A DNA stretch of 64,000 bases from Porphyridium purpureum (taxonomy: Eukaryota). This document shows, in pieces, positions 10,527-33,978 of the stretch; the stretch's first letter is position 1, and every line of letters starts with the position of its first letter. Where the stretch lies: the NCBI GenBank assembly GCA_008690995.1, contig VRMN01000004.1:372001-436000 (forward strand). The letters are read 5' to 3'. The position numbers and the translations under genes are program-made. The notes under the pieces are model-generated. The model did not search any database. It worked only from the letters and a program-made list of their open reading frames with translations, and was not told where the DNA came from.

Positions 10527-11287
10527 CCTGTGCGCCTCTGTGCTGCCGGCCTGTTCGCCGCTGCGTTCCTAAATCCCGAGCACCGCTATCACCCACGACG
10601 CGCAAACACACGCTCGAGTACACGCGACCGCACACCGCGCTCCGTTTGTTTCCCGCTCCTGTGTCGTCTCCCCCCCGCCCGCTCCGACCGCGCTCCTTTT
10701 TTCTCTCGAACACACGCACATCCCACAACCACCACCTAACCTTTGACCCACTGCGACATCCCTCGCCACTCGCCCTGCCAATTGAGTCGCCAACTTCGAG
10801 CCGTCATCGCAGGTGTACACTATGAAACCCTAGCTTCACGTTGCGGCATGAACCTTCCGTAGCAAAAACGTGCCGTCTTGATAAGAAGCAAGTGCAGCGG
10901 CGAATCGGTTAACGGTCTACCGACTCATGACGCCACTAAGCCGCAACCGGGAACGGATAAGCAGCGTGGCTGAAAAGTTTGACTACTGATGACGGCTGCG
11001 GGCGTCGGTCAGTGGCTCGACCCCGGAAGAAAGGTGTGCGTCGGTATCGACTCTGCGCATGAAGCGCGACGCACAGCATGGCGTTCACGATGGTTGTGGG
11101 TTCGCAAATGAGTGCTGGTTGGCCAACGTCGTACGTTCAACGCTGGTGTGAAAACCTGGTTTTCGGTTCGCGGTTCACGTCAGGCGCGGCGCAATTTCAA
11201 AGTAACCGTTGTGTCATCAAAGGATAAGTCACTGTACCCCATCCTCGAATCGTTCACTGTACCCACCGTCGCTTTTGAAGCCTGGAT

Positions 11288-12084
11288 CGTGGAATTTTAG
11301 GGTTCCGCCCCGAGAGACGCCGTAGGGTTTTGAGTACAAAACCCTAGAAAGTTCTATGATGAAAGATTGTTCGAGAAGCGTGATGATCTCGGACCTGCGA
11401 AATGTTTGTCATTGTCGTTTTGTGTGACCTTGTGCAAAGGTCAAAGGCCGGCCGAAGCTTCTGGATTCGTTCTTGACGCGCCTTCCCGGCCATTTTTCGG
11501 ATACGTGGCCGGCTGTGGTTGCGAGTTGTGGAACGAATCAAAACCTGTGGTGGAAATTCGTCCTGTTGGAGAAATTTGTTCTCCCGTCCTTGCTGGAAAG
11601 AGCAAGGACGAAGGGTATAAAAGGACGAAGGGGCAAGCTGGTTCCCAGGAATTTCCAGGTCAAGGTAGAAGAAGAGGTAAGGGCAAATAGAATAAAAAGA
11701 GAATTGGTTAGTTGGATTGAGGCAGTCGTTGGAAGACTTGGGTTGGATTTGCGGGAGAGGCACGCTAGCGTGTTGTGCGAGCGGATATCGGTCTGGAGTG
11801 TTTTTAAAAAGGCAGCTGGGGTTTAAACGTACCTTCCATCACCCTTCACTTGTCAAGACCGGTCCACTCCCTCTCGTAGTCCCCTATAAGTTGAATTTTC
11901 TGTCCTCTCTTCCTTTCTAGCCACTTTTCTCTGATTGTCCTGCTTGTCCTTCCGTTCGTTTCGGTGTGTCGGTTCGTCGTCGGTTTGTCAGTTTCCGGGG
12001 TGTGGCGGTTTCCAGTTCCTGTTATCGGTGAAGCGGTCCGGTTTTGTTGATTCGGTTACAAAGCAGAAAGGGAGAAATTCCAAG
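11288..12084 (+). repeat. 5' LTR of copy 1
   Basis: Direct repeat of 16252-17048; one mismatch seen (G12036 vs A17000); TATAAAA at 11616 and AATAAA at 11691. Confidence 0.96.
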
Positions 12085-12102
12085 TGGTATCATCGCCCGG
12101 TT
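12085..12102 (+). other. Primer-binding site (initiator tRNA-Met)
   Basis: TGGTATCATCGCCCGGTT directly abuts the LTR; TGGTATCA core; final TT fits the A-rich T-loop of eukaryotic tRNAi. Confidence 0.85.
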
Positions 12103-12113
12103 GTTTGGAGAAA

Positions 12114-13061
12114 ATGGAAAGCCATGAAATGGAAATGAATGTCCCGCAGGAGAATGCGGCATGGATTGAGGCAGCTAATCAGCTGCATGCGCGCATTGCG
12201 GGACAGGAGATGATGATGGCACAAGTGCAGGAAGCGAATCGTAACCTCCATGAAATGATGCATGTTTTGTTGCGCCAGCAGACCGTGGCGTCTGGGTCTG
12301 GTGACAACGATCGTGCCATGGCCGCGTTAATTGGGCGCAGTTTGAGAAAGTTTGATGGTCAGCGTGACAAGCTCGTTGTCAATGAATGGCTGATGCGAAT
12401 GAAGAGCGACCTGGATATCTGCATGCCCGCAGATGCTTTGGACTCGCAGAAAGTGATTGTTGCAAGTCGCTTTTTCGAGAGGGACGCAGCGCTGCTTTGG
12501 GCAGCTCGTCCGGAGGAGCAGAGAAAGGGCCTTGCAGAGGCCGGATGGGATGCGTTCGCAAACTTCGTGCGCACAGCGTTTGAGCCGCCGCAGGCGCATT
12601 TGACAGCGCGCACCAATCTGTATCAGTTGAAGCAAGGGAAAATGACGGTCGCAGAATTTGAGCAGAATCTCAGGATGACAGCGTTATCAGTTGAAGATGT
12701 GACAGATGCAGAACTGAACACCATCTTCACGCTGGGCTTGAAGGAGAAACTGCGTATTGAGGTGGCCCGTCAGGACACAAGGACCTTGGAAGAATCACTG
12801 AAAGTTGCGTTGGCAGCTGAGCAGGTTGCAAAGTTCGGAGGAGATATGAGTCAAGTGATCAAGAACTCGTCATCGACTCATAGCAGGGCGTTCTCGTCGC
12901 ATTCTGGTAGCGCACCAATGGATTTGGGAGCCATGGACAAGCGGAAGTCTGGCAAGACCAAAGTGAAGTGTTACCATTGTGGAGAACGTGGACACATTAA
13001 GCCCAAATGCCCTAAATTGAAGGAGCGCTTGGCAGGTGGTCCGCCAGAGCCGGAAAACTAA
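12114..13061 (+). CDS. gag: Retrotransposon Gag (copy 1)
   Basis: Retrotrans_gag-like core (LYQLKQGKMTVAEF..F..GLK), APMDLG, CCHC knuckle CYHCGERGHIKPKC. Confidence 0.92.
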   Translation: MESHEMEMNVPQENAAWIEAANQLHARIAGQEMMMAQVQEANRNLHEMMHVLLRQQTVASGSGDNDRAMAALIGRSLRKFDGQRDKLVVNEWLMRMKSDLDICMPADALDSQKVIVASRFFERDAALLWAARPEEQRKGLAEAGWDAFANFVRTAFEPPQAHLTARTNLYQLKQGKMTVAEFEQNLRMTALSVEDVTDAELNTIFTLGLKEKLRIEVARQDTRTLEESLKVALAAEQVAKFGGDMSQVIKNSSSTHSRAFSSHSGSAPMDLGAMDKRKSGKTKVKCYHCGERGHIKPKCPKLKERLAGGPPEPEN

Positions 13062-13113
13062 GACCTCGAGAGCCAAGACAGGAGGAGATCTCGAGGGGAA
13101 TGGAGCCTCCTGT
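13052..13113 (+). other. Predicted -1 ribosomal frameshift signal (slippery heptamer plus H-type pseudoknot)
   Basis: G_GAA_AAC at 13052-13058; stem 1 CCTCGAGA/TCTCGAGG; stem 2 ACAGGAGG/CCTCCTGT. Confidence 0.8.
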
Positions 13114-16100
13114 AATGGGTGTTGTGGAAGGTGTTGCGCACGAGGGTGCGAGGTCAAGGCTCTTCTACAAACATGGGAAAGTGAGTGGTTCAAAAATCGA
13201 CTTCTTGATTGACAGTGGAGCGTCGCATAATTTCCTGGGGTCCCGATTCTTGGACGCAAGCGTAAAGTCCAGTTGCGATGAATGCATGGTCGAGCTTGCG
13301 GGAGGACAGAGAATGAAGGTGCACGGCCCCATTGTGCTTGCGGTGGACCTCGGTTTCTGGATAGGGAACGTCGAGTTTTATATCGGTCCCATTCGTATGG
13401 ATGCCATCTTAGGGTGGAAATGGCTCAAGATGGTGAATCCTAAGATTGATTGGCAGAAGGGACTGATGGAAACGAGGCCCGAGGGGAAGGAAATATGCAC
13501 GTTGGAAAATGTTGAAGAAGTGGTTCCCGAGCTTGACGGGAAAAATCAGAGCGTGGCTGCTTCGGAACACGAGTTGACTCACATGCCTATGCAAAGAGAC
13601 TGTGAGACGTGTGTCGTGGCGAAGATAAAGCGACGCCCGGCCCGAAGGCTGGAGAAAGATGTCAGTGCATTGTCATTCAATGATGAAGTCGGAATTGACT
13701 TGGTGGAGCCTGGGCGAAATGTGAAGTCGGTAGATGGTTCAAAGTTTATTTTGACGCATATCGACAGAGCCACAGGATGGGTGACATTGGCGGGGCTACG
13801 TGCGAAAACCCACACGGCGGTTGCGGACGCTTGGAAAAGTGTGCAAGCCGGGAGAGGATGGCCGAAGGTTTTGCGAACGGATGATGGGAATGAGTTCAAG
13901 GGAGATGTGGGGAGACTGGTGCGTGAACACCTCATAAAGCACGAGGTGGGGATTCCGTACAGGCCAAACAGTCATGCTGAACAGGAGCGGTTTCACCACA
14001 CGCTGAATCAGGGAATCCGTGCGAATCTTGTGCAGGCCGGACTCGGGAAGCGTTGGTTCATGCACGCCGCGCAGCATTTTGCGTTCATGACGAATAGACT
14101 TCACGTGGGCAGGAAGTCTGGAAAGACGCCGTTTGAATTACGACATGGTGAAAAATGGTCGCCGAGAAATCTTAGTTTGCCATTCGGGTGCAAGGTGGTC
14201 TACAAAGATGATCAGCCTGACAATAAGTATGCACCGCGAGGAAAAGTTGGCATTCTCGTCGGCGTTGGAGAGCATCCGATGGCAATTTTGGTGCTTCCTC
14301 GGGATGACTGGACGAGTGAGACCCCAAAAGTAATTCGCACTCAGGATTTTAAGGCATTTACCCATGAGTTCCCTTTAAAGGGAATTGAACGAGAGGTGGT
14401 GAGCCTGAGCCAGCAGGAAGAGTTGCCAGAAGTGGACGAACCATCCGCGGTTGAAGCGGTGCAGGACTTGGATCGTCGTATCGATGCTCTCAGAGCTAGA
14501 GAAGCGGAGCTTGAGAAAGAGATCGAGGCATTGAAAGTGAGAGTGGTTGACGAAGAACGGGCAGCAGGCACGGGTGGTCCAGTGACGATCCCACAGTTGA
14601 ACTTAACGACTTTGCTGAAAACTGGAGCGGCGTTGGCGTCTGAGCAAGGACGAGCCGCGATGGAAAAAGAAGTCAAATCCATGCTGAAATTTGGGGTATG
14701 GGATGAGAGTCCCTTGACGCTGGAGGAGGCCCGGAGGCAACCTGGTGCTCGTTTCGTACGCACACATTTCATTTTCGGTCTGAAATTTGCTGAGATGCCG
14801 GAAGAATTTCGCAAGGTGAAGTGCCGCTTGGTGGCCGGGGGAAACAGGATATGGGGGTCCGATGGAGCTGCGACGAATGACATTTTTGATTATGAGACGC
14901 CTGCTGGTTTGTCAGCTATCCGAATGATAATAGCTGTGGCTGCAATTCTGGGCCTTCAGATTGTTAGTTTCGACATCAGCTCGGCATACCTCCATGCGGA
15001 CCTGTCTGGGCCACCTACGTTTGCATACTTACCGCGTGAAATTTGTGATTCAAAAGACACAGTAGTCAGGCTGAGAAAGGCGCTGTATGGCTTGCCCAGG
15101 AGCGGCTCGGATTTCTCACAAGATGCTCGGAGGAGATTGCAAAAGTTCCAGTGGAAGCTCGTGCATGGTGAAAAGAATGTGTACGTCCGGAGAAATGCTG
15201 CAAGTTCGTCAGTTGCGTTGTTGGCTCTGTACGTGGATGATGGTCTATTAGCCTGTCGAGAGGAGGAACGCCCAGGAATCATCGAAGAATTGAAACAAGA
15301 GTTTCTCATAGAAAAAGCACCAGAACTATTGACGGAAGGAGGATCCTTGAGATTCCTGGGGACGAGCATTTCCCTCAAAAATGGGAGCGTGAGTTTGGCG
15401 AATCAAGAGTATCAAGATGTGGTCATTCGGGAATTTGAGCAGGATATTAGACGCGTATTGCGTGCCGTGAAGTCACCATCTGAGAAGCTAGATGGCGAGG
15501 AAGTTCTGAATTATCAAGTCATCTGGAAGACTTTGAAAGTAAGAGAACACGTCGGGAGGCTGATGTGGCTCGCCAGAACGGTTCGACCTGATATTGCGTA
15601 TGCAGTCGGTATGATTGCCCGGTACGTTGACAAGTGGAATGTGGCAGCAGAAAGGCTGCTCGTACGAGTCGTGCAGTATTTGAAAACACCTCGGGAAGCA
15701 TTGGAGTATCACGTGTTGGGGAATCTCAAGGAAGGCATCAGAGGGGTGAACATTCTTGGATACACGGATGCTGACTTTGCTGGTTGTCCAGAGAGTCGTG
15801 TGTCGACTTCTGGAAGAGCAACGTACTTAGTTGCTGGAGATTACAAGTACCTAGTGGATTGGTCTTCGAGAAAGCAGCGTTTCGTGAGCTCGTCGACTTC
15901 AGAGTCGGAGTTGGCTGCCCTAGAGGAAACTGTGCAACTCTCGTTGTTTCCTGCATTGTCTTTCTTGCGAAGTATACGTGACGGAGAGTTCTCGGTGATT
16001 TTGATGTGTGACAATCAAGCTGTGATGCGAGCAATAGAGATGGGGTACTCGCCAAAGTTGCATCATATGGCGATAACCCGAGCAACAGATTTGGCCTGGT

Positions 16101-16264
16101 TGCATCAGGTGTGCGAAAAGCAGAAACTTGTGAAACTGGCATTTGTGAAGACGGACGAAAATGTGGCGGACTTAATGACCAAGGCCTTATTTCCGGAGGG
16201 CCACATTAAGTGCTGGGAGAAGTTACGCGTCCCTCAGACCGGAAGGAGGAGCGTGGAATTTTAG
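13052..16264 (+). CDS. pol: Pol polyprotein PR-IN-RT-RNaseH (copy 1), in -1 frame relative to gag; first ATG at 13100
   Basis: LIDSGASHNF protease; HHCC and DDE integrase; RVT_2 motifs KCRLVA, DISSAYL, KALYGL, YVDD; Copia RNase H motifs GYTDADFAG, CDNQA, ADLMTKAL. Confidence 0.95.
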   Translation, partial: GKLRPREPRQEEISRGMEPPVMGVVEGVAHEGARSRLFYKHGKVSGSKIDFLIDSGASHNFLGSRFLDASVKSSCDECMVELAGGQRMKVHGPIVLAVDLGFWIGNVEFYIGPIRMDAILGWKWLKMVNPKIDWQKGLMETRPEGKEICTLENVEEVVPELDGKNQSVAASEHELTHMPMQRDCETCVVAKIKRRPARRLEKDVSALSFNDEVGIDLVEPGRNVKSVDGSKFILTHIDRATGWVTLAGLRAKTHTAVADAWKSVQAGRGWPKVLRTDDGNEFKGDVGRLVREHLIKHEVGIPYRPNSHAEQERFHHTLNQGIRANLVQAGLGKRWFMHAAQHFAFMTNRLHVGRKSGKTPFELRHGEKWSPRNLSLPFGCKVVYKDDQPDNKYAPRGKVGILVGVGEHPMAILVLPRDDWTSETPKVIRTQDFKAFTHEFPLKGIEREVVSLSQQEELPEVDEPSAVEAVQDLDRRIDALRAREAELEKEIEALKVRVVDEERAAGTGGPVTIPQLNLTTLLKTGAALASEQGRAAMEKEVKSMLKFGVWDESPLTLEEARRQPGARFVRTHFIFGLKFAEMPEEFRKVKCRLVAGGNRIWGSDGAATNDIFDYETPAGLSAIRMIIAVAAILGLQIVSFDISSAYLHADLSGPPTFAYLPREICDSKDTVVRLRKALYGLPRSGSDFSQDARRRLQKFQWKLVHGEKNVYVRRNAASSSVALLALYVDDGLLACREEERPGIIEELKQEFLIEKAPELLTEGGSLRFLGTSISLKNGSVSLANQEYQDVVIREFEQDIRRVLRAVKSPSEKLDGEEVLNYQVIWKTLKVREHVGRLMWLARTVRPDIAYAVGMIARYVDKWNVAAERLLVRVVQYLKTPREALEYHVLGNLKEGIRGVNILGYTDADFAGCPESRVSTSGRATYLVAGDYKYLVDWSSRKQRFVSSSTSESELAALEETVQLSLFPALSFLRSIRDGEFSVILMCDNQAVMRAIEMGYSPKLHHMAITRATDLAWLHQVCEKQKLVKLAFVKTDENVADLMTKALFPEGHIKCWEKLRVPQTGRRSVEF
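16241..16251 (+). other. Polypurine tract (copy 1)
   Basis: GGAAGGAGGAG immediately before the 3' LTR, inside the pol coding sequence. Confidence 0.85.
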
Positions 16265-17048
16265 GGTTCCGCCCCGAGAGACGCCGTAGGGTTTTGAGTA
16301 CAAAACCCTAGAAAGTTCTATGATGAAAGATTGTTCGAGAAGCGTGATGATCTCGGACCTGCGAAATGTTTGTCATTGTCGTTTTGTGTGACCTTGTGCA
16401 AAGGTCAAAGGCCGGCCGAAGCTTCTGGATTCGTTCTTGACGCGCCTTCCCGGCCATTTTTCGGATACGTGGCCGGCTGTGGTTGCGAGTTGTGGAACGA
16501 ATCAAAACCTGTGGTGGAAATTCGTCCTGTTGGAGAAATTTGTTCTCCCGTCCTTGCTGGAAAGAGCAAGGACGAAGGGTATAAAAGGACGAAGGGGCAA
16601 GCTGGTTCCCAGGAATTTCCAGGTCAAGGTAGAAGAAGAGGTAAGGGCAAATAGAATAAAAAGAGAATTGGTTAGTTGGATTGAGGCAGTCGTTGGAAGA
16701 CTTGGGTTGGATTTGCGGGAGAGGCACGCTAGCGTGTTGTGCGAGCGGATATCGGTCTGGAGTGTTTTTAAAAAGGCAGCTGGGGTTTAAACGTACCTTC
16801 CATCACCCTTCACTTGTCAAGACCGGTCCACTCCCTCTCGTAGTCCCCTATAAGTTGAATTTTCTGTCCTCTCTTCCTTTCTAGCCACTTTTCTCTGATT
16901 GTCCTGCTTGTCCTTCCGTTCGTTTCGGTGTGTCGGTTCGTCGTCGGTTTGTCAGTTTCCGGGGTGTGGCGGTTTCCAGTTCCTGTTATCGGTGAAGCGA
17001 TCCGGTTTTGTTGATTCGGTTACAAAGCAGAAAGGGAGAAATTCCAAG
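16252..17048 (+). repeat. 3' LTR of copy 1
   Basis: Repeat of 11288-12084. Confidence 0.96.
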
Positions 17049-17237
17049 TGGATTAGGGGGAAAGGGTGTACAGTGTGTGTGTGCTGGCATCGTGTACAGT
17101 GGTGAGGACGACAAAGGAATGAAACTGAGTGGGAGAAGGCAAGAGCGTAGGAAGAGAGAGAGAGGGAGAGGGAGAAAGGGAAAGGAGTTTGGTTGGGTGT
17201 GGGGTGTGTGGAAGGAAGAGGCGGAGGAGCGAGCGGG

Positions 17238-27385: not shown

Positions 27386-27789
27386 CCTACTCCTTTGCAA
27401 CTCTGACCCTCGTCTCCTCCACACTCACTCACCGATACTCCCACTCTCCCTCAATCTTCCCCTCTGCTTACCTCACGTCAAACTTGGAGCTAAAGTATCG
27501 AAGTCCTCCTTCCCACTCGCCTCGCTCAAGAATCCCCAAAACATGCCCCGAACGTGATCCCTATAAAATCCAACCCGTTTTGTTACAAAACAACTCAAGC
27601 TCCTGCCAAGCCCGCGCCAGTTTGCTACTTATCTCCGCGCTCGACCTCGCACGAGATGTGCACTGTACCTTTGTCGCCCCCACAACCCCAAAACGCCAAA
27701 ACGCACAACCAGTCGCACCCCAGTTCTCTCCACTGTACCCCCCCTCTTTCTCCTTCGTTTCGAGTTGTCCAAACGGGTTCGAACGTCAG

Positions 27790-28586
27790 CGTGGAATTTT
27801 AGGGTTCCGCCCCGAGAGACGCCGTAGGGTTTTGAGTACAAAACCCTAGAAAGTTCTATGATGAAAGATTGTTCGAGAAGCGTGATGATCTCGGACCTGC
27901 GAAATGTTTGTCATTGTCGTTTTGTGTGGCCTTGTGCAAAGGTCAAAGGCCGGCCGAAGCTTCTGGATTCGTTCTTGACGCGCCCTCCCGGCCATTTTCC
28001 GGATACGTGGCCGGCTGTGGTTGCGAGTTGTGGAACGAATCAAAACCTGTGGTGGAAATTCGTCCTGTTGGAGAAATTTGTTCTCCCGTCCTTGCTGGAA
28101 AGAGCAAGGACGAAGGGTATAAAAGGACGAAGGGGCAAGCTGGTTCCCAGGAATTTCCAGGTCAAGGTAGAAGAAGAGGTAAGGGCAAATAGAATAAAAA
28201 GAGAATTGGTTAGTTGGATTGAGGCAGTCGTTGGAAGACTTGGGTTGGATTTGCGGGAGAGGCACGCTAGCGTGTTGTGCGAGCGGATATCGGTCTGGAG
28301 TGTTTTTAAAAAGGCAGCTGGGGTTTAAACGTACCTTCCATCACCCTTCACTTGTCAAGACCGGTCCACTCCCTCTCGTAGTCCCCTATAAGTTGAATTT
28401 TCTGTCCTCTCTTCCTTTCTAGCCACTTTTCTCTGATTGTCCTGCTTGTCCTTCCGTTCGTTTCGGTGTGTCGGTTCGTCGTCGGTTTGTCAGTTTCCGG
28501 GGTGTGGCGGTTTCCAGTTCCTGTTATCGGTGAAGCGGTCCGGTTTTGTTGATTCGGTTACAAAGCAGAAAGGGAGAAATTCCAAG
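27790..28586 (+). repeat. 5' LTR of copy 2
   Basis: No difference from 32754-33550 seen by eye. Confidence 0.96.
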
Positions 28587-28615
28587 TGGTATCATCGCCC
28601 GGTTGTTTGGAGAAA

Positions 28616-29563
28616 ATGGAAAGCCATGAAATGGAAATGAATGTCCCGCAGGAGAATGCGGCATGGATTGAGGCAGCTAATCAGCTGCATGCGCGCATTG
28701 CGGGACAGGAGATGATGATGGCACAAGTGCAGGAAGCGAATCGTAACCTCCATGAAATGATGCATGTTTTGTTGCGCCAGCAGACCGTGGCGTCTGGGTC
28801 TGGTGACAACGATCGTGCCATGGCCGCGTTAATTGGGCGCAGTTTGAGAAAGTTTGATGGTCAGCGTGACAAGCTCGTTGTCAATGAATGGCTGATGCGA
28901 ATGAAGAGCGACCTGGATATCTGCATGCCCGCAGATGCTTTGGACTCGCAGAAAGTGATTGTTGCAAGTCGCTTTTTCGAGAGGGACGCAGCGCTGCTTT
29001 GGGCAGCTCGTCCGGAGGAGCAGAGAAAGGGCCTTGCAGAGGCCGGATGGGATGCGTTCGCAAACTTCGTGCGCACAGCGTTTGAGCCGCCGCAGGCGCA
29101 TTTGACAGCGCGCACCAATCTGTATCAGTTGAAGCAAGGGAAAATGACGGTCGCAGAATTTGAGCAGAATCTCAGGATGACAGCGTTATCAGTTGAAGAT
29201 GTGACAGATGCAGAACTGAACACCATCTTCACGCTGGGCTTGAAGGAGAAACTGCGTATTGAGGTGGCCCGTCAGGACACAAGGACCTTGGAAGAATCAC
29301 TGAAAGTTGCGTTGGCAGCTGAGCAGGTTGCAAAGTTCGGAGGAGATATGAGTCAAGTGATCAAGAACTCGTCATCGACTCATAGCAGGGCGTTCTCGTC
29401 GCATTCTGGTAGCGCACCAATGGATTTGGGAGCCATGGACAAGCGGAAGTCTGGCAAGACCAAAGTGAAGTGTTACCATTGTGGAGAACGTGGACACATT
29501 AAGCCCAAATGCCCTAAATTGAAGGAGCGCTTGGCAGGTGGTCCGCCAGAGCCGGAAAACTAA
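28616..29563 (+). CDS. gag: Retrotransposon Gag (copy 2)
   Basis: Protein identical to copy 1. Confidence 0.92.
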   Translation: MESHEMEMNVPQENAAWIEAANQLHARIAGQEMMMAQVQEANRNLHEMMHVLLRQQTVASGSGDNDRAMAALIGRSLRKFDGQRDKLVVNEWLMRMKSDLDICMPADALDSQKVIVASRFFERDAALLWAARPEEQRKGLAEAGWDAFANFVRTAFEPPQAHLTARTNLYQLKQGKMTVAEFEQNLRMTALSVEDVTDAELNTIFTLGLKEKLRIEVARQDTRTLEESLKVALAAEQVAKFGGDMSQVIKNSSSTHSRAFSSHSGSAPMDLGAMDKRKSGKTKVKCYHCGERGHIKPKCPKLKERLAGGPPEPEN

Positions 29564-32500
29564 GACCTCGAGAGCCAAGACAGGAGGAGATCTCGAGGGG
29601 AATGGAGCCTCCTGTAATGGGTGTTGTGGAAGGTGTTGCGCACGAGGGTGCGAGGTCAAGGCTCTTCTACAAACATGGGAAAGTGAGTGGTTCAAAAATC
29701 GACTTCTTGATTGACAGTGGAGCGTCGCATAATTTCCTGGGGTCCCGATTCTTGGACGCAAGCGTAAAGTCCAGTTGCGATGAATGCATGGTCGAGCTTG
29801 CGGGAGGACAGAGAATGAAGGTGCACGGCCCCATTGTGCTTGCGGTGGACCTCGGTTTCTGGATAGGGAACGTCGAGTTTTATATCGGTCCCATTCGTAT
29901 GGATGCCATCTTAGGGTGGAAATGGCTCAAGATGGTGAATCCTAAGATTGATTGGCAGAAGGGACTGATGGAAACGAGGCCCGAGGGGAAGGAAATATGC
30001 ACGTTGGAAAATGTTGAAGAAGTGGTTCCCGAGCTTGACGGGAAAAATCAGAGCGTGGCTGCTTCGGAACACGAGTTGACTCACATGCCTATGCAAAGAG
30101 ACTGTGAGACGTGTGTCGTGGCGAAGATAAAGCGACGCCCGGCCCGAAGGCTGGAGAAAGATGTCAGTGCATTGTCATTCAATGATGAAGTCGGAATTGA
30201 CTTGGTGGAGCCTGGGCGAAATGTGAAGTCGGTAGATGGTTCAAAGTTTATTTTGACGCATATCGACAGAGCCACAGGATGGGTGACATTGGCGGGGCTA
30301 CGTGCGAAAACCCACACGGCGGTTGCGGACGCTTGGAAAAGTGTGCAAGCCGGGAGAGGATGGCCGAAGGTTTTGCGAACGGATGATGGGAATGAGTTCA
30401 AGGGAGATGTGGGGAGACTGGTGCGTGAACACCTCATAAAGCACGAGGTGGGGATTCCGTACAGGCCAAACAGTCATGCTGAACAGGAGCGGTTTCACCA
30501 CACGCTGAATCAGGGAATCCGTGCGAATCTTGTGCAGGCCGGACTCGGGAAGCGTTGGTTCATGCACGCCGCGCAGCATTTTGCGTTCATGACGAATAGA
30601 CTTCACGTGGGCAGGAAGTCTGGAAAGACGCCGTTTGAATTACGACATGGTGAAAAATGGTCGCCGAGAAATCTTAGTTTGCCATTCGGGTGCAAGGTGG
30701 TCTACAAAGATGATCAGCCTGACAATAAGTATGCACCGCGAGGAAAAGTTGGCATTCTCGTCGGCGTTGGAGAGCATCCGATGGCAATTTTGGTGCTTCC
30801 TCGGGATGACTGGACGAGTGAGACCCCAAAAGTAATTCGCACTCAGGATTTTAAGGCATTTACCCATGAGTTCCCTTTAAAGGGAATTGAACGAGAGATG
30901 GTGAGCCTGAGCCAGCAGGAAGAGTTGCCAGAAGTGGACGAACCATCCGCGGTTGAAGCGGTGCAGGACTTGGATCGTCGTATCGATGCTCTCAGAGCTA
31001 GAGAAGCGGAGCTTGAGAAAGAGATCGAGGCATTGAAAGTGAGAGTGGTTGACGAAGAACGGGCAGCAGGCACGGGTGGTCCAGTGACGATCCCACAGTT
31101 GAACTTAACGACTTTGCTGAAAACTGGAGCGGCGTTGGCGTCTGAGCAAGGACGAGCCGCGATGGAAAAAGAAGTCAAATCCATGCTGAAATTTGGGGTA
31201 TGGGATGAGAGTCCCTTGACGCTGGAGGAGGCCCGGAGGCAACCTGGTGCTCGTTTCGTACGCACACATTTCATTTTCGGTCTGAAATTTGCTGAGATGC
31301 CGGAAGAATTTCGCAAGGTGAAGTGCCGCTTGGTGGCCGGGGGAAACAGGATATGGGGGTCCGATGGAGCTGCGACGAATGACATTTTTGATTATGAGAC
31401 GCCTGCTGGTTTGTCAGCTATCCGAATGATAATAGCTGTGGCTGCAATTCTGGGCCTTCAGATTGTTAGTTTCGACATCAGCTCGGCATACCTCCATGCG
31501 GACCTGTCTGGGCCACCTACGTTTGCATACTTACCGCGTGAAATTTGTGATTCAAAAGACACAGTAGTCAGGCTGAGAAAGGCGCTGTATGGCTTGCCCA
31601 GGAGCGGCTCGGGTTTCTCACAAGATGCTCGGAGGAGATTGCAAAAGTTCCAGTGGAAGCTCGTGCATGGTGAAAAGAATGTGTACGTCCGGAGAAATGC
31701 TGCAAGTTCGTCAGTTGCGTTGTTGGCTCTGTACGTGGATGATGGTCTATTAGCCTGTCGAGAGGAGGAACGCCCAGGAATCATCGAAGAATTGAAACAA
31801 GAGTTTCTCATAGAAAAAGCACCAGAACTATTGACGGAAGGAGGATCCTTGAGATTCCTGGGGACGAGCATTTCCCTCAAAAATGGGAGCGTGAGTTTGG
31901 CGAATCAAGAGTATCAAGATGTGGTCATTCGGGAATTTGAGCAGGATATTAGACGCGTATTGCGTGCCGTGAAGTCACCATCTGAGAAGCTAGATGGCGA
32001 GGAAGTTCTGAATTATCAAGTCATCTGGAAGACTTTGAAAGTAAGAGAACACGTCGGGAGGCTGATGTGGCTCGCCAGAACGGTTCGACCTGATATTGCG
32101 TATGCAGTCGGTATGATTGCCCGGTACGTTGACAAGTGGAATGTGGCAGCAGAAAGGCTGCTCGTACGAGTCGTGCAGTATTTGAAAACACCTCGGGAAG
32201 CATTGGAGTATCACGTGTTGGGGAATCTCAAGGAAGGCATCAGAATGGTGAACATTCTTGGATACACGGATGCTGACTTTGCTGGTTGTCCAGAGAGTCG
32301 TGTGTCGACTTCTGGAAGAGCAACGTACTTAGTTGCTGGAGATTACAAGTACCTAGTGGATTGGTCTTCAAGAAAGCAGCGTTTCGTGAGCTCGTCGACT
32401 TCAGAGTCGGAGCTGGCCGCCCTAGAGGAAACTGTGCAACTCTCGTTGTTTCCTGCATTGTCTTTCTTGCGAAGTATACGTGACGGAGAGTTCTCGGTGA

Positions 32501-32766
32501 TTTTGATGTGTGACAATCAAGCTGTGATGCGAGCAATAGAGATGGGGTACTCGCCAAAGTTGCATCATATGGCGATAACCCGAGCAACAGATTTGGCCTG
32601 GTTGCATCAGGTGTGCGAAAAGCAGAAACTTGTGAAACTGGCATTTGTGAAGACGGACGAAAATGTGGCGGACTTAATGACCAAGGCCTTATTTCCGGAG
32701 GGCCACATTAAGTGCTGGGAGAAGTTACGCGTCCCTCAGACCGGAAGGAGGAGCGTGGAATTTTAG
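29554..32766 (+). CDS. pol: Pol polyprotein (copy 2); first ATG at 29602; frameshift signal 29554-29615
   Basis: Differs from copy 1 at three residues (V>M, D>G, G>M). Confidence 0.95.
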   Translation, partial: GKLRPREPRQEEISRGMEPPVMGVVEGVAHEGARSRLFYKHGKVSGSKIDFLIDSGASHNFLGSRFLDASVKSSCDECMVELAGGQRMKVHGPIVLAVDLGFWIGNVEFYIGPIRMDAILGWKWLKMVNPKIDWQKGLMETRPEGKEICTLENVEEVVPELDGKNQSVAASEHELTHMPMQRDCETCVVAKIKRRPARRLEKDVSALSFNDEVGIDLVEPGRNVKSVDGSKFILTHIDRATGWVTLAGLRAKTHTAVADAWKSVQAGRGWPKVLRTDDGNEFKGDVGRLVREHLIKHEVGIPYRPNSHAEQERFHHTLNQGIRANLVQAGLGKRWFMHAAQHFAFMTNRLHVGRKSGKTPFELRHGEKWSPRNLSLPFGCKVVYKDDQPDNKYAPRGKVGILVGVGEHPMAILVLPRDDWTSETPKVIRTQDFKAFTHEFPLKGIEREMVSLSQQEELPEVDEPSAVEAVQDLDRRIDALRAREAELEKEIEALKVRVVDEERAAGTGGPVTIPQLNLTTLLKTGAALASEQGRAAMEKEVKSMLKFGVWDESPLTLEEARRQPGARFVRTHFIFGLKFAEMPEEFRKVKCRLVAGGNRIWGSDGAATNDIFDYETPAGLSAIRMIIAVAAILGLQIVSFDISSAYLHADLSGPPTFAYLPREICDSKDTVVRLRKALYGLPRSGSGFSQDARRRLQKFQWKLVHGEKNVYVRRNAASSSVALLALYVDDGLLACREEERPGIIEELKQEFLIEKAPELLTEGGSLRFLGTSISLKNGSVSLANQEYQDVVIREFEQDIRRVLRAVKSPSEKLDGEEVLNYQVIWKTLKVREHVGRLMWLARTVRPDIAYAVGMIARYVDKWNVAAERLLVRVVQYLKTPREALEYHVLGNLKEGIRMVNILGYTDADFAGCPESRVSTSGRATYLVAGDYKYLVDWSSRKQRFVSSSTSESELAALEETVQLSLFPALSFLRSIRDGEFSVILMCDNQAVMRAIEMGYSPKLHHMAITRATDLAWLHQVCEKQKLVKLAFVKTDENVADLMTKALFPEGHIKCWEKLRVPQTGRRSVEF

Positions 32767-33550
32767 GGTTCCGCCCCGAGAGACGCCGTAGGGTTTTGAG
32801 TACAAAACCCTAGAAAGTTCTATGATGAAAGATTGTTCGAGAAGCGTGATGATCTCGGACCTGCGAAATGTTTGTCATTGTCGTTTTGTGTGGCCTTGTG
32901 CAAAGGTCAAAGGCCGGCCGAAGCTTCTGGATTCGTTCTTGACGCGCCCTCCCGGCCATTTTCCGGATACGTGGCCGGCTGTGGTTGCGAGTTGTGGAAC
33001 GAATCAAAACCTGTGGTGGAAATTCGTCCTGTTGGAGAAATTTGTTCTCCCGTCCTTGCTGGAAAGAGCAAGGACGAAGGGTATAAAAGGACGAAGGGGC
33101 AAGCTGGTTCCCAGGAATTTCCAGGTCAAGGTAGAAGAAGAGGTAAGGGCAAATAGAATAAAAAGAGAATTGGTTAGTTGGATTGAGGCAGTCGTTGGAA
33201 GACTTGGGTTGGATTTGCGGGAGAGGCACGCTAGCGTGTTGTGCGAGCGGATATCGGTCTGGAGTGTTTTTAAAAAGGCAGCTGGGGTTTAAACGTACCT
33301 TCCATCACCCTTCACTTGTCAAGACCGGTCCACTCCCTCTCGTAGTCCCCTATAAGTTGAATTTTCTGTCCTCTCTTCCTTTCTAGCCACTTTTCTCTGA
33401 TTGTCCTGCTTGTCCTTCCGTTCGTTTCGGTGTGTCGGTTCGTCGTCGGTTTGTCAGTTTCCGGGGTGTGGCGGTTTCCAGTTCCTGTTATCGGTGAAGC
33501 GGTCCGGTTTTGTTGATTCGGTTACAAAGCAGAAAGGGAGAAATTCCAAG
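32754..33550 (+). repeat. 3' LTR of copy 2
   Basis: Repeat of 27790-28586. Confidence 0.96.
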
Positions 33551-33978
33551 GTCAGCCATACAAGTACAGTATCTACACTGTACACAGATCCTCATTGACA
33601 GGCCAGGTTTGAAAGGGAAGGCAGAAAGGAAAAAGGTACAGCGCGTGTGAGGCTTGTCACGTGGAATAAGTAAATTTATCACGGCGCGAATCAGACCGTA
33701 CCTCCAAGGAAGGTACGATCAAACGGGTCGTTTTTGGAATGAGATCGATCGCAGATCCGTTGAAGGGGTTTGGATGAAACGGTGATGGTTGGATGGGTGG
33801 TGAGTTGTAGTGGCGGTGGTGGTGAGCGGTAAGTAGGAAGGAAGAGAGGGAATACTCGGTGTGCACGGCGGTGATTGGGAAGCGTGGATCGGTTGGGTGT
33901 AAGGAAGAGAGAAGTTGCGGAAGGAGCGGTTGTGCGGCGAGTTGGAGGCGGTCTGCGGCGGCGGCGGTGGTGGGTACG

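Follow-up and report, generated by a model that had tools for sequence, protein, structure and literature searches.

Two copies of a Porphyridium purpureum LTR retrotransposon are bounded by CG...AG, two bases outside an intact TG...CA

The window analyzed here, a 64,000-nt stretch of the Porphyridium purpureum genome (GenBank assembly GCA_008690995.1, contig VRMN01000004.1, positions 372,001 to 436,000 of the forward strand), holds two copies of one 5761-bp long terminal repeat (LTR) retrotransposon, at 11288-17048 and 27790-33550, both on the + strand. The element is bounded by 5′-CG...AG-3′, two bases outside an intact TG...CA, and the ends that its integrase joins to the target, with a 5-bp stagger, are CA-N-G-3′, so that G and not the A of CA is the joined 3′ nucleotide. 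All four LTRs (11288-12084, 16252-17048, 27790-28586, and 32754-33550) are 797 bp long, and each opens with CGTGGAATTT and closes with AAATTCCAAG. The LTRs differ from each other at one base in copy 1 and at none in copy 2, the two copies differ at 14 positions, and all four open reading frames (ORFs) are open; the element is young, intact, and recently mobile. The two insertions and their target-site duplications (TSDs) are laid out as follows.

11283..11287, + strand: left TSD of copy 1 (TGGAT), present once in the empty allele
11288..12084, + strand: 5′ LTR of copy 1, 797 bp, with CG at 11288-89, TG at 11290-91, CA at 12081-82, and AG at 12083-84
16252..17048, + strand: 3′ LTR of copy 1, with one difference from the 5′ LTR
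17049..17053, + strand: right TSD of copy 1 (TGGAT)
27785..27789, + strand: left TSD of copy 2 (GTCAG)
27790..33550, + strand: copy 2, 5761 bp, with identical LTRs and intact ORFs, 14 differences from copy 1
33551..33555, + strand: right TSD of copy 2 (GTCAG)

For the boundaries, a TSD was scored for each of the 81 boundary pairs that lie within 4 nt on either side of TG and CA. The register two bases outward at both ends was the only one with a flanking 5-bp TSD in both copies (TGGAT and GTCAG), and no TSD of 3 bp or more flanks TG..CA boundaries in either copy. The chance of two 5-mer matches at one given register is 1.1e-6, and about 9e-5 over the 81 registers. An initial annotation, made from the letters of the window, had stated that 5-bp TSDs appear only with CG..AG boundaries. 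This holds strictly for copy 1; copy 2 taken alone also fits a 6-bp TSD, GTCAGC, with an element that starts at G and is one base shorter. The start of the element is settled at C because other junctions beyond copy 2 place it there. The terminal inverted repeat reads C-N-TGGAATTT, in which the outermost bases pair, position 2 is mismatched, and positions 3-10 match (9/10), so that the perfect repeat begins at TG, exactly 2 nt inside each end as had been annotated. The primer-binding site (PBS) begins at the base after AG (12085) and the polypurine tract (PPT) ends at the base before CG (16251), again in agreement with that annotation.

12085..12102, + strand: PBS, abutting AG
16241..16251, + strand: PPT, GGAAGGAGGAG, abutting CG

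The stretch is contained in 19 of the 20 listed public sequencing runs, eight of which were compared with the window. Empty alleles were found for both insertions. For copy 1, contigs of runs X6 and X15 join 11282 directly to 17049, and for copy 2, low-depth contigs (3.1 and 4.2) of runs X7 and X19 join 27784 to 33551, in each case two of four runs; the four runs with empty alleles derive from three studies. Each empty allele skips exactly 5766 nt (the 5761-bp element and one 5-bp duplication) with no letters between, and therefore CG and AG belong to the element. An element bounded by TG..CA would have left four extra bases at the empty site, and none are there. We thus give practically no credence to a boundary illusion or assembly error, in which CG and AG would be target bases or reflect a site preference. 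The 6-bp TSD allowed by copy 2 alone would suit it, but it is refuted by the empty alleles, which lack both dinucleotides at both loci, and the internal LTR copies also carry CG and AG, beside the PPT and PBS.

Further junctions in these runs show the same ends. The counts come from 32 of 48 loose-end rows. At the right LTR end, all 10 rows run through AG, nine of them into new flanks and one repeating the flank of copy 1. At the left end, five of six rows break just before CG (three share one flank and one merges two contigs), and the sixth is a short relic beginning with CG. None of these 16 end rows breaks at TG or CA. A left/right junction pair in X6 gives the TSD GACCC. The annotated agreement of two independent insertions on CG..AG is thereby extended, by empty sites at both loci and by additional independent junctions, and with the shared register it bears out ends that lie two bases outside TG...CA. 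Of the two findings that the annotation had named as refuting it, CG/AG already present in empty alleles and TSDs abutting TG..CA in most other copies, neither turned up. The relic, from X6, comprises roughly 40 bp from the left end of the LTR (window 11295-11326) with one extra T, and lies in unrelated flanking DNA. A joint from 32751 to 27788 in X10 was considered as evidence of a circle and rejected, as it equals an assembly path through collapsed LTRs.

It was also observed that 3 of 11 right flanks begin with TGG, like the PBS: that of copy 1 (17049-17053) and two X19 junctions (28587-28590). At copy 1 the TGG is true target sequence. At the two X19 junctions it could reflect target preference, ascertainment, or PBS-derived bases on an untrimmed end.

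The same rows bear on a reading in which the integrase processes normally at CA and host repair retains the 2-nt 5′ overhangs. This needs no change of integrase specificity, but the extra bases would lie on opposite strands and replication would yield one canonical end, and no canonical end is seen among the 16 end rows. Moreover, a net 5-bp TSD with replaced target bases needs a 9-nt stagger, against the usual duplication of 4-6 bp. We consider overhang retention very unlikely.

As to how the G ends come to be joined, we lean towards a blunt cDNA that undergoes strand transfer with its 3′ ends untrimmed, the inner TG...CA being the likely ancestral end signal. Reverse transcription would begin at the end of the tRNA and immediately after the purine tract, yielding a cDNA with blunt AG and CG ends, and an integrase with no processing step, like that of Ty1, would use the terminal 3′-G-OH. 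In an ancestor, 2-nt spacers would have been trimmed, and end recognition would later have shifted two bases outward, after which the terminal G would be fixed and the second base free. With the PBS starting at the very next base after AG, trimming 2 nt from a right end that had lost its primer cleanly would take AG away, but AG is retained throughout. Since the PBS and PPT both abut the ends, the simplest cDNA is one blunt at the integrated ends and joined as made.

13568..14380, + strand: integrase, with a compact H-x3-H-x6-C-x2-C finger, a D-D(34)-E triad, and, four residues ahead of the catalytic Glu, a His

The accessible parts of PMC8487063 and PMC2939329 describe Ty1 integrase as joining blunt ends and needing no 3′ processing, and the lineage integrase profile finds its best PDB match in Ty1 integrase (E 1e-12). 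The position four residues before the catalytic Glu is His in Ty1 and in all 11 aligned integrases of Porphyridium families (12 tried), whereas, of 39 ordinary copias tried, 30 aligned and 29 of these have Asn; His occurs in 10 of 136 other matches. The equivalent residue of HIV integrase, Q148, contacts terminal viral bases according to the accessible text of PMC3185514. The shared His may be linked to non-processing, and we take it as a lead only. The annotation had set out from the premise that retroviral-type integrases trim and join CA-3′ ends, which is overstated given Ty1, errantiviruses, and plant copias.

A sister family with 65-72% amino acid identity offers a further view of the ends. 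The pol frame of the element continues across the PPT and 13 nt into the 3′ LTR (16241-16264), so the CG and TG bases there are also coding.

13016..16264, + strand: pol frame, -1 relative to gag, intact, in the order protease, integrase, reverse transcriptase (RT), RNase H

In six rows, a related element has the same PPT and then leaves the window sequence at five bases inside the LTR. The protein P0006, 72% identical, ends in GRRSMD, compared with GRRSVEF in this element, and from this C-terminus and two mismatches in one contig the sister LTR appears to start with CA-TGGA. In X7, a single 177-nt contig of depth about 3 has a sister junction at 33590, where TG is preceded by at least one base, A, that is not from the target. 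The insertion and the empty site of copy 2 are some 35-40 nt apart, and the place is a possible hotspot. The left ends of the two families give a weak but consistent indication that C and TGGA are constant and position 2 is variable. The three joined ends are CCA-AG and CCA-CG in this element and, as we infer, CCA-TG in the sister.

These ends are relevant to a reading in which blunt ends are joined, as may be the case for errantiviruses or plant non-TGCA copias, but the termini drifted independently, and the inner TG...CA simply belongs to a 10-bp inverted repeat, without ever having been a trimmed signal and without any special role. Ends other than TG/CA exist in errantiviruses, plant copias, 3 of 26 CoDi families, and GyRex2, and TG has a 1/16 chance of occurring at any one offset. 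Still, the offset is exactly two at both ends with the perfect repeat beginning at TG, and the sister family retains C-x-TGGA with a different base at position 2. Independent drift therefore seems unlikely to us.

Several points weigh against the joining of an untrimmed blunt end with TG...CA as its former signal. Primer ribonucleotides can be left by RNase H, which can also cut within the purine tract. The 1/16 chance per offset given above applies to TG at positions 3-4 of the inverted repeat, and the conserved TG of the sister family overlaps pol codons. The end comparison covers this element and its sister, and the LTR ends of P0050, P0053, P0055, P0058, and the environmental relatives fall outside it; the junction tally is likewise confined to the rows counted above. 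No unintegrated cDNA ends or 2-LTR junctions were seen in the eight runs, whose contigs drop rare forms, so trimming to G from a longer end would fit as well. The His link has one characterized non-processing enzyme behind it, and the 10 other matches noted above share the residue. Finally, Ty1 requires a terminal CA in the accessible parts of the two Ty1 sources, so Ty1-like chemistry does not explain the acceptance of G.

Trimming at a shifted site is a real though lesser possibility. Here the cDNA would be longer than CG...AG, with PPT purines on the left and tRNA bases on the right, and the integrase would cut after CA-N-G. It matches every junction equally well, the great uniformity of the ends could reflect trimming, the DDE triad is intact, and some copias do process (Tnt1, according to a reference title in PMC3907296). 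Against this, it requires primer remnants at both ends together with a moved cut site, there is no spacer between the PBS or PPT and the ends, and the loop His is held in common with the non-processing Ty1. Of the annotated proposal that unprocessed blunt cDNA is joined by its 3′-G, the joining of G stands on the empty sites and the independent insertions, and the blunt, untrimmed state is the part that we favor by argument.

The coding region combines domains of two kinds, as listed below.

12114..13061, + strand: gag, gypsy-like, with Retrotrans_gag, Ty3_capsid, and a CCHC knuckle
13052..13058, + strand: candidate -1 frameshift heptamer, GGAAAAC, ahead of the gag stop; an 8-bp hairpin is predicted after it (no shuffle control)
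13175..13429, + strand: protease, gypsy-like (Asp_protease_2, gag-asp_proteas)
14756..15439, + strand: reverse transcriptase, RVT_2, copia type
15731..16185, + strand: RNase H, copia type, ending in ADxxTK (start approximate)

The heptamer follows the slippery pattern of -1 frameshift sites, and gag-pol expression likely uses -1 frameshifting at GGAAAAC and the predicted hairpin (13052-13100); P0050 and P0053 are annotated as single long proteins. The integrase's C-terminus gives a weak SH3-like match, and the stretch between integrase and RT looks coiled and charged by eye. For the integrase, the ESM Atlas returned mostly clusters without names and two SH3_retrovirus/gag_pre-integrs clusters, each holding one diatom record, and no weight is placed on these. 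The PBS presumably pairs with the initiator Met-tRNA. A tRNA gene search of the window found none, an Rfam search over copy 1 gave no match, and no other relics of the lineage were found in the window by tblastn.

Judged by its domain matches, the element is copia-type in integrase, RT, RNase H, and gene order, with a gypsy-like Gag and protease. Its near-identical protein matches carry the name Porphyridium purpureum. The RT matches RVT_2 (E 1.7e-18), and the domain order is that of Ty1/copia, as are the LTRs, PBS, PPT, and a TSD within 4-6 bp. Of 40 copia proteins, 34 score at least 20 bits with the RT and 39 with the RNase H, and none of three gypsy proteins does so with either; as these protein sets were picked by similarity, this test is partly circular, and it is the Pfam matches that carry the gypsy-like claim. 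The copia-type Gag and protease domains PF14223 and PF22936 are missing, and PF03732, PF19259, and PF13975/PF13650 were found instead. Among 39 non-Porphyridium matches (ordinary copias), 30 have PF14223 or PF22936 and none has PF03732, PF19259, or PF13975. The Gag and protease align with a gypsy polyprotein and not with a copia polyprotein, while the Ty3/gypsy hallmarks of an RVT_1-type RT and an integrase after RT-RNase H are lacking, as are the integrated 5′-TG...CA-3′ ends of canonical LTR retroelements.

A gypsy-like Gag and protease on a copia-order pol are also present in P0005, P0050, P0053, and P0062, all from Porphyridium. When set against its counterparts in P0050, P0053, and P0062 in the bit-score test, this protease stays below 7 bits, and a single origin of the protease across the families is thus not supported. 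A FastTree of RT-RNase H, which kept 93 of 207 proteins and was made without any named GalEa or CoDi sequence, placed nine Porphyridium and 24 ungrouped sequences on one side of a branch with support 100 and 37 ordinary copias on the other. The ungrouped sequences include one from Porphyridium and one from a dinoflagellate, and most of those looked up are environmental records. A pattern scan of metagenomes for DNA of the related families gave 0 matches, and none was confirmed in viral, metagenome, or prokaryote contigs. Myb-like DNA-binding domains occur between integrase and RT in P0005 (residues 860-909) and P0055 (residues 315-361) and are possible targeting modules. The environmental relative P0068 has an AAA_28 domain after RNase H (residues 1213-1375).

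The accessible part of PMC2774666 describes no copia with a gypsy gag, and a reference title within PMC5445492 mentions a copia with a gypsy-like integrase in Porphyra; no description of a gypsy-gag/copia-pol lineage was found in the openly searchable literature. The mixed domains allow one more, doubtful, origin of the ends: a gypsy-type LTR-gag-protease module with 2-nt trim spacers may have been joined to a copia integrase unable to trim, which would read TG...CA from two bases inside and join the G ends. If true, it would be a natural integrase whose end recognition is uncoupled from the joined nucleotide.

Clusters of CTGTAC lie at both insertion sites (11232-11262, 17068-17099, 27663-27738, and 33564-33641). 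The motif, which was chosen after the fact, occurs four and five times within 150 nt on either side, counts reached by 0.8% and 0.2% of host positions. Both insertions sit between divergently oriented genes, copy 1 being 190 nt before the start of a proteasome ATPase gene; neighboring genes in the window include those for PsaO, proteasome ATPases, and MCM5. The CTGTAC clusters and the divergent-gene setting suggest promoter targeting.

Few features of integration by retroviruses and LTR elements are as conserved as the terminal CA, and the accessible parts of PMC5659011 and 10.1101/137141 call the reason for this poorly understood. In an element that has retained CA yet is joined two bases outside it, the recognition of CA is separated from the joined base, and the gain or loss of 3′ processing becomes testable with one recombinant enzyme. 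Motif-based LTR finders that expect a TSD directly next to TG..CA would probably place the boundaries of such families wrongly or overlook them, and algae and protists may therefore hold more cases of this kind than have been counted.

Among known systems, Ty1 of Saccharomyces cerevisiae shares with this element the order protease, integrase, RT, RNase H, a 5-bp TSD, and the His before the catalytic Glu, and blunt-end joining without processing is published for Ty1 and proposed here. Ty1, however, ends in and requires TG...CA, whereas this element joins a G two bases outside CA, has a gypsy-like Gag and protease, and carries pol in the -1 frame. GalEa/RAS elements, with CoPorcru1-2 reported from Porphyridium (accessible parts of PMC3587641 and PMC5445492) and PyRE10G from Porphyra, are likewise copias; they occur in the same host genus (Porphyridium) and have a 5-bp TSD, YVDD, and ADxxTK. 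They differ in their single large ORF, DTG(C/A) protease, and, in CoRex1, TG..CA ends, where the present element has two ORFs, DSGA, and CG..AG.

Integrated ends other than TG/CA are documented, in the accessible parts of the sources cited, for several groups. The Drosophila errantiviruses (gypsy, ZAM, and Idefix groups) end in AGT/AnT, with their handling by integrase stated as unclear (PMC5408687); as in this element, both ends are non-TG/CA, with the terminal base fixed and the second variable, but errantiviruses are Ty3/gypsy elements with other end bases. In plants, seven non-TGCA motif types, mostly of copias, are described with an invariant first T in a 50-genome scan (10.1101/137141), and examples include Tos17 (TG..GA), AtRE1 (TA..TA), and TARE1 (TA..CA), as well as TGTT and AACA ends in Rosaceae (PMC5659011), for which the accessible supplement shows no bases inside the AA end. 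These plant elements resemble ours as copias with non-TGCA ends near genes; their ends are described as in-register substitutions, with AACA departing from TGCA at one end only, whereas here both ends extend outward and TG..CA is intact. Three of 26 diatom CoDi families (CoDi3.2/4.2/4.3) lack TG/CA (PMC2806351), and GyRex2 ends in CT..AA, as taken from a chimeric consensus (PMC3587641). In the open literature, with subscription journals and Repbase outside the scope, we found neither this family described nor any report of ends lying two bases beyond an intact TG..CA. Non-TG/CA ends and non-processing integrases each have precedent; what appears to be new is that both ends are shifted outward around a preserved TG...CA.

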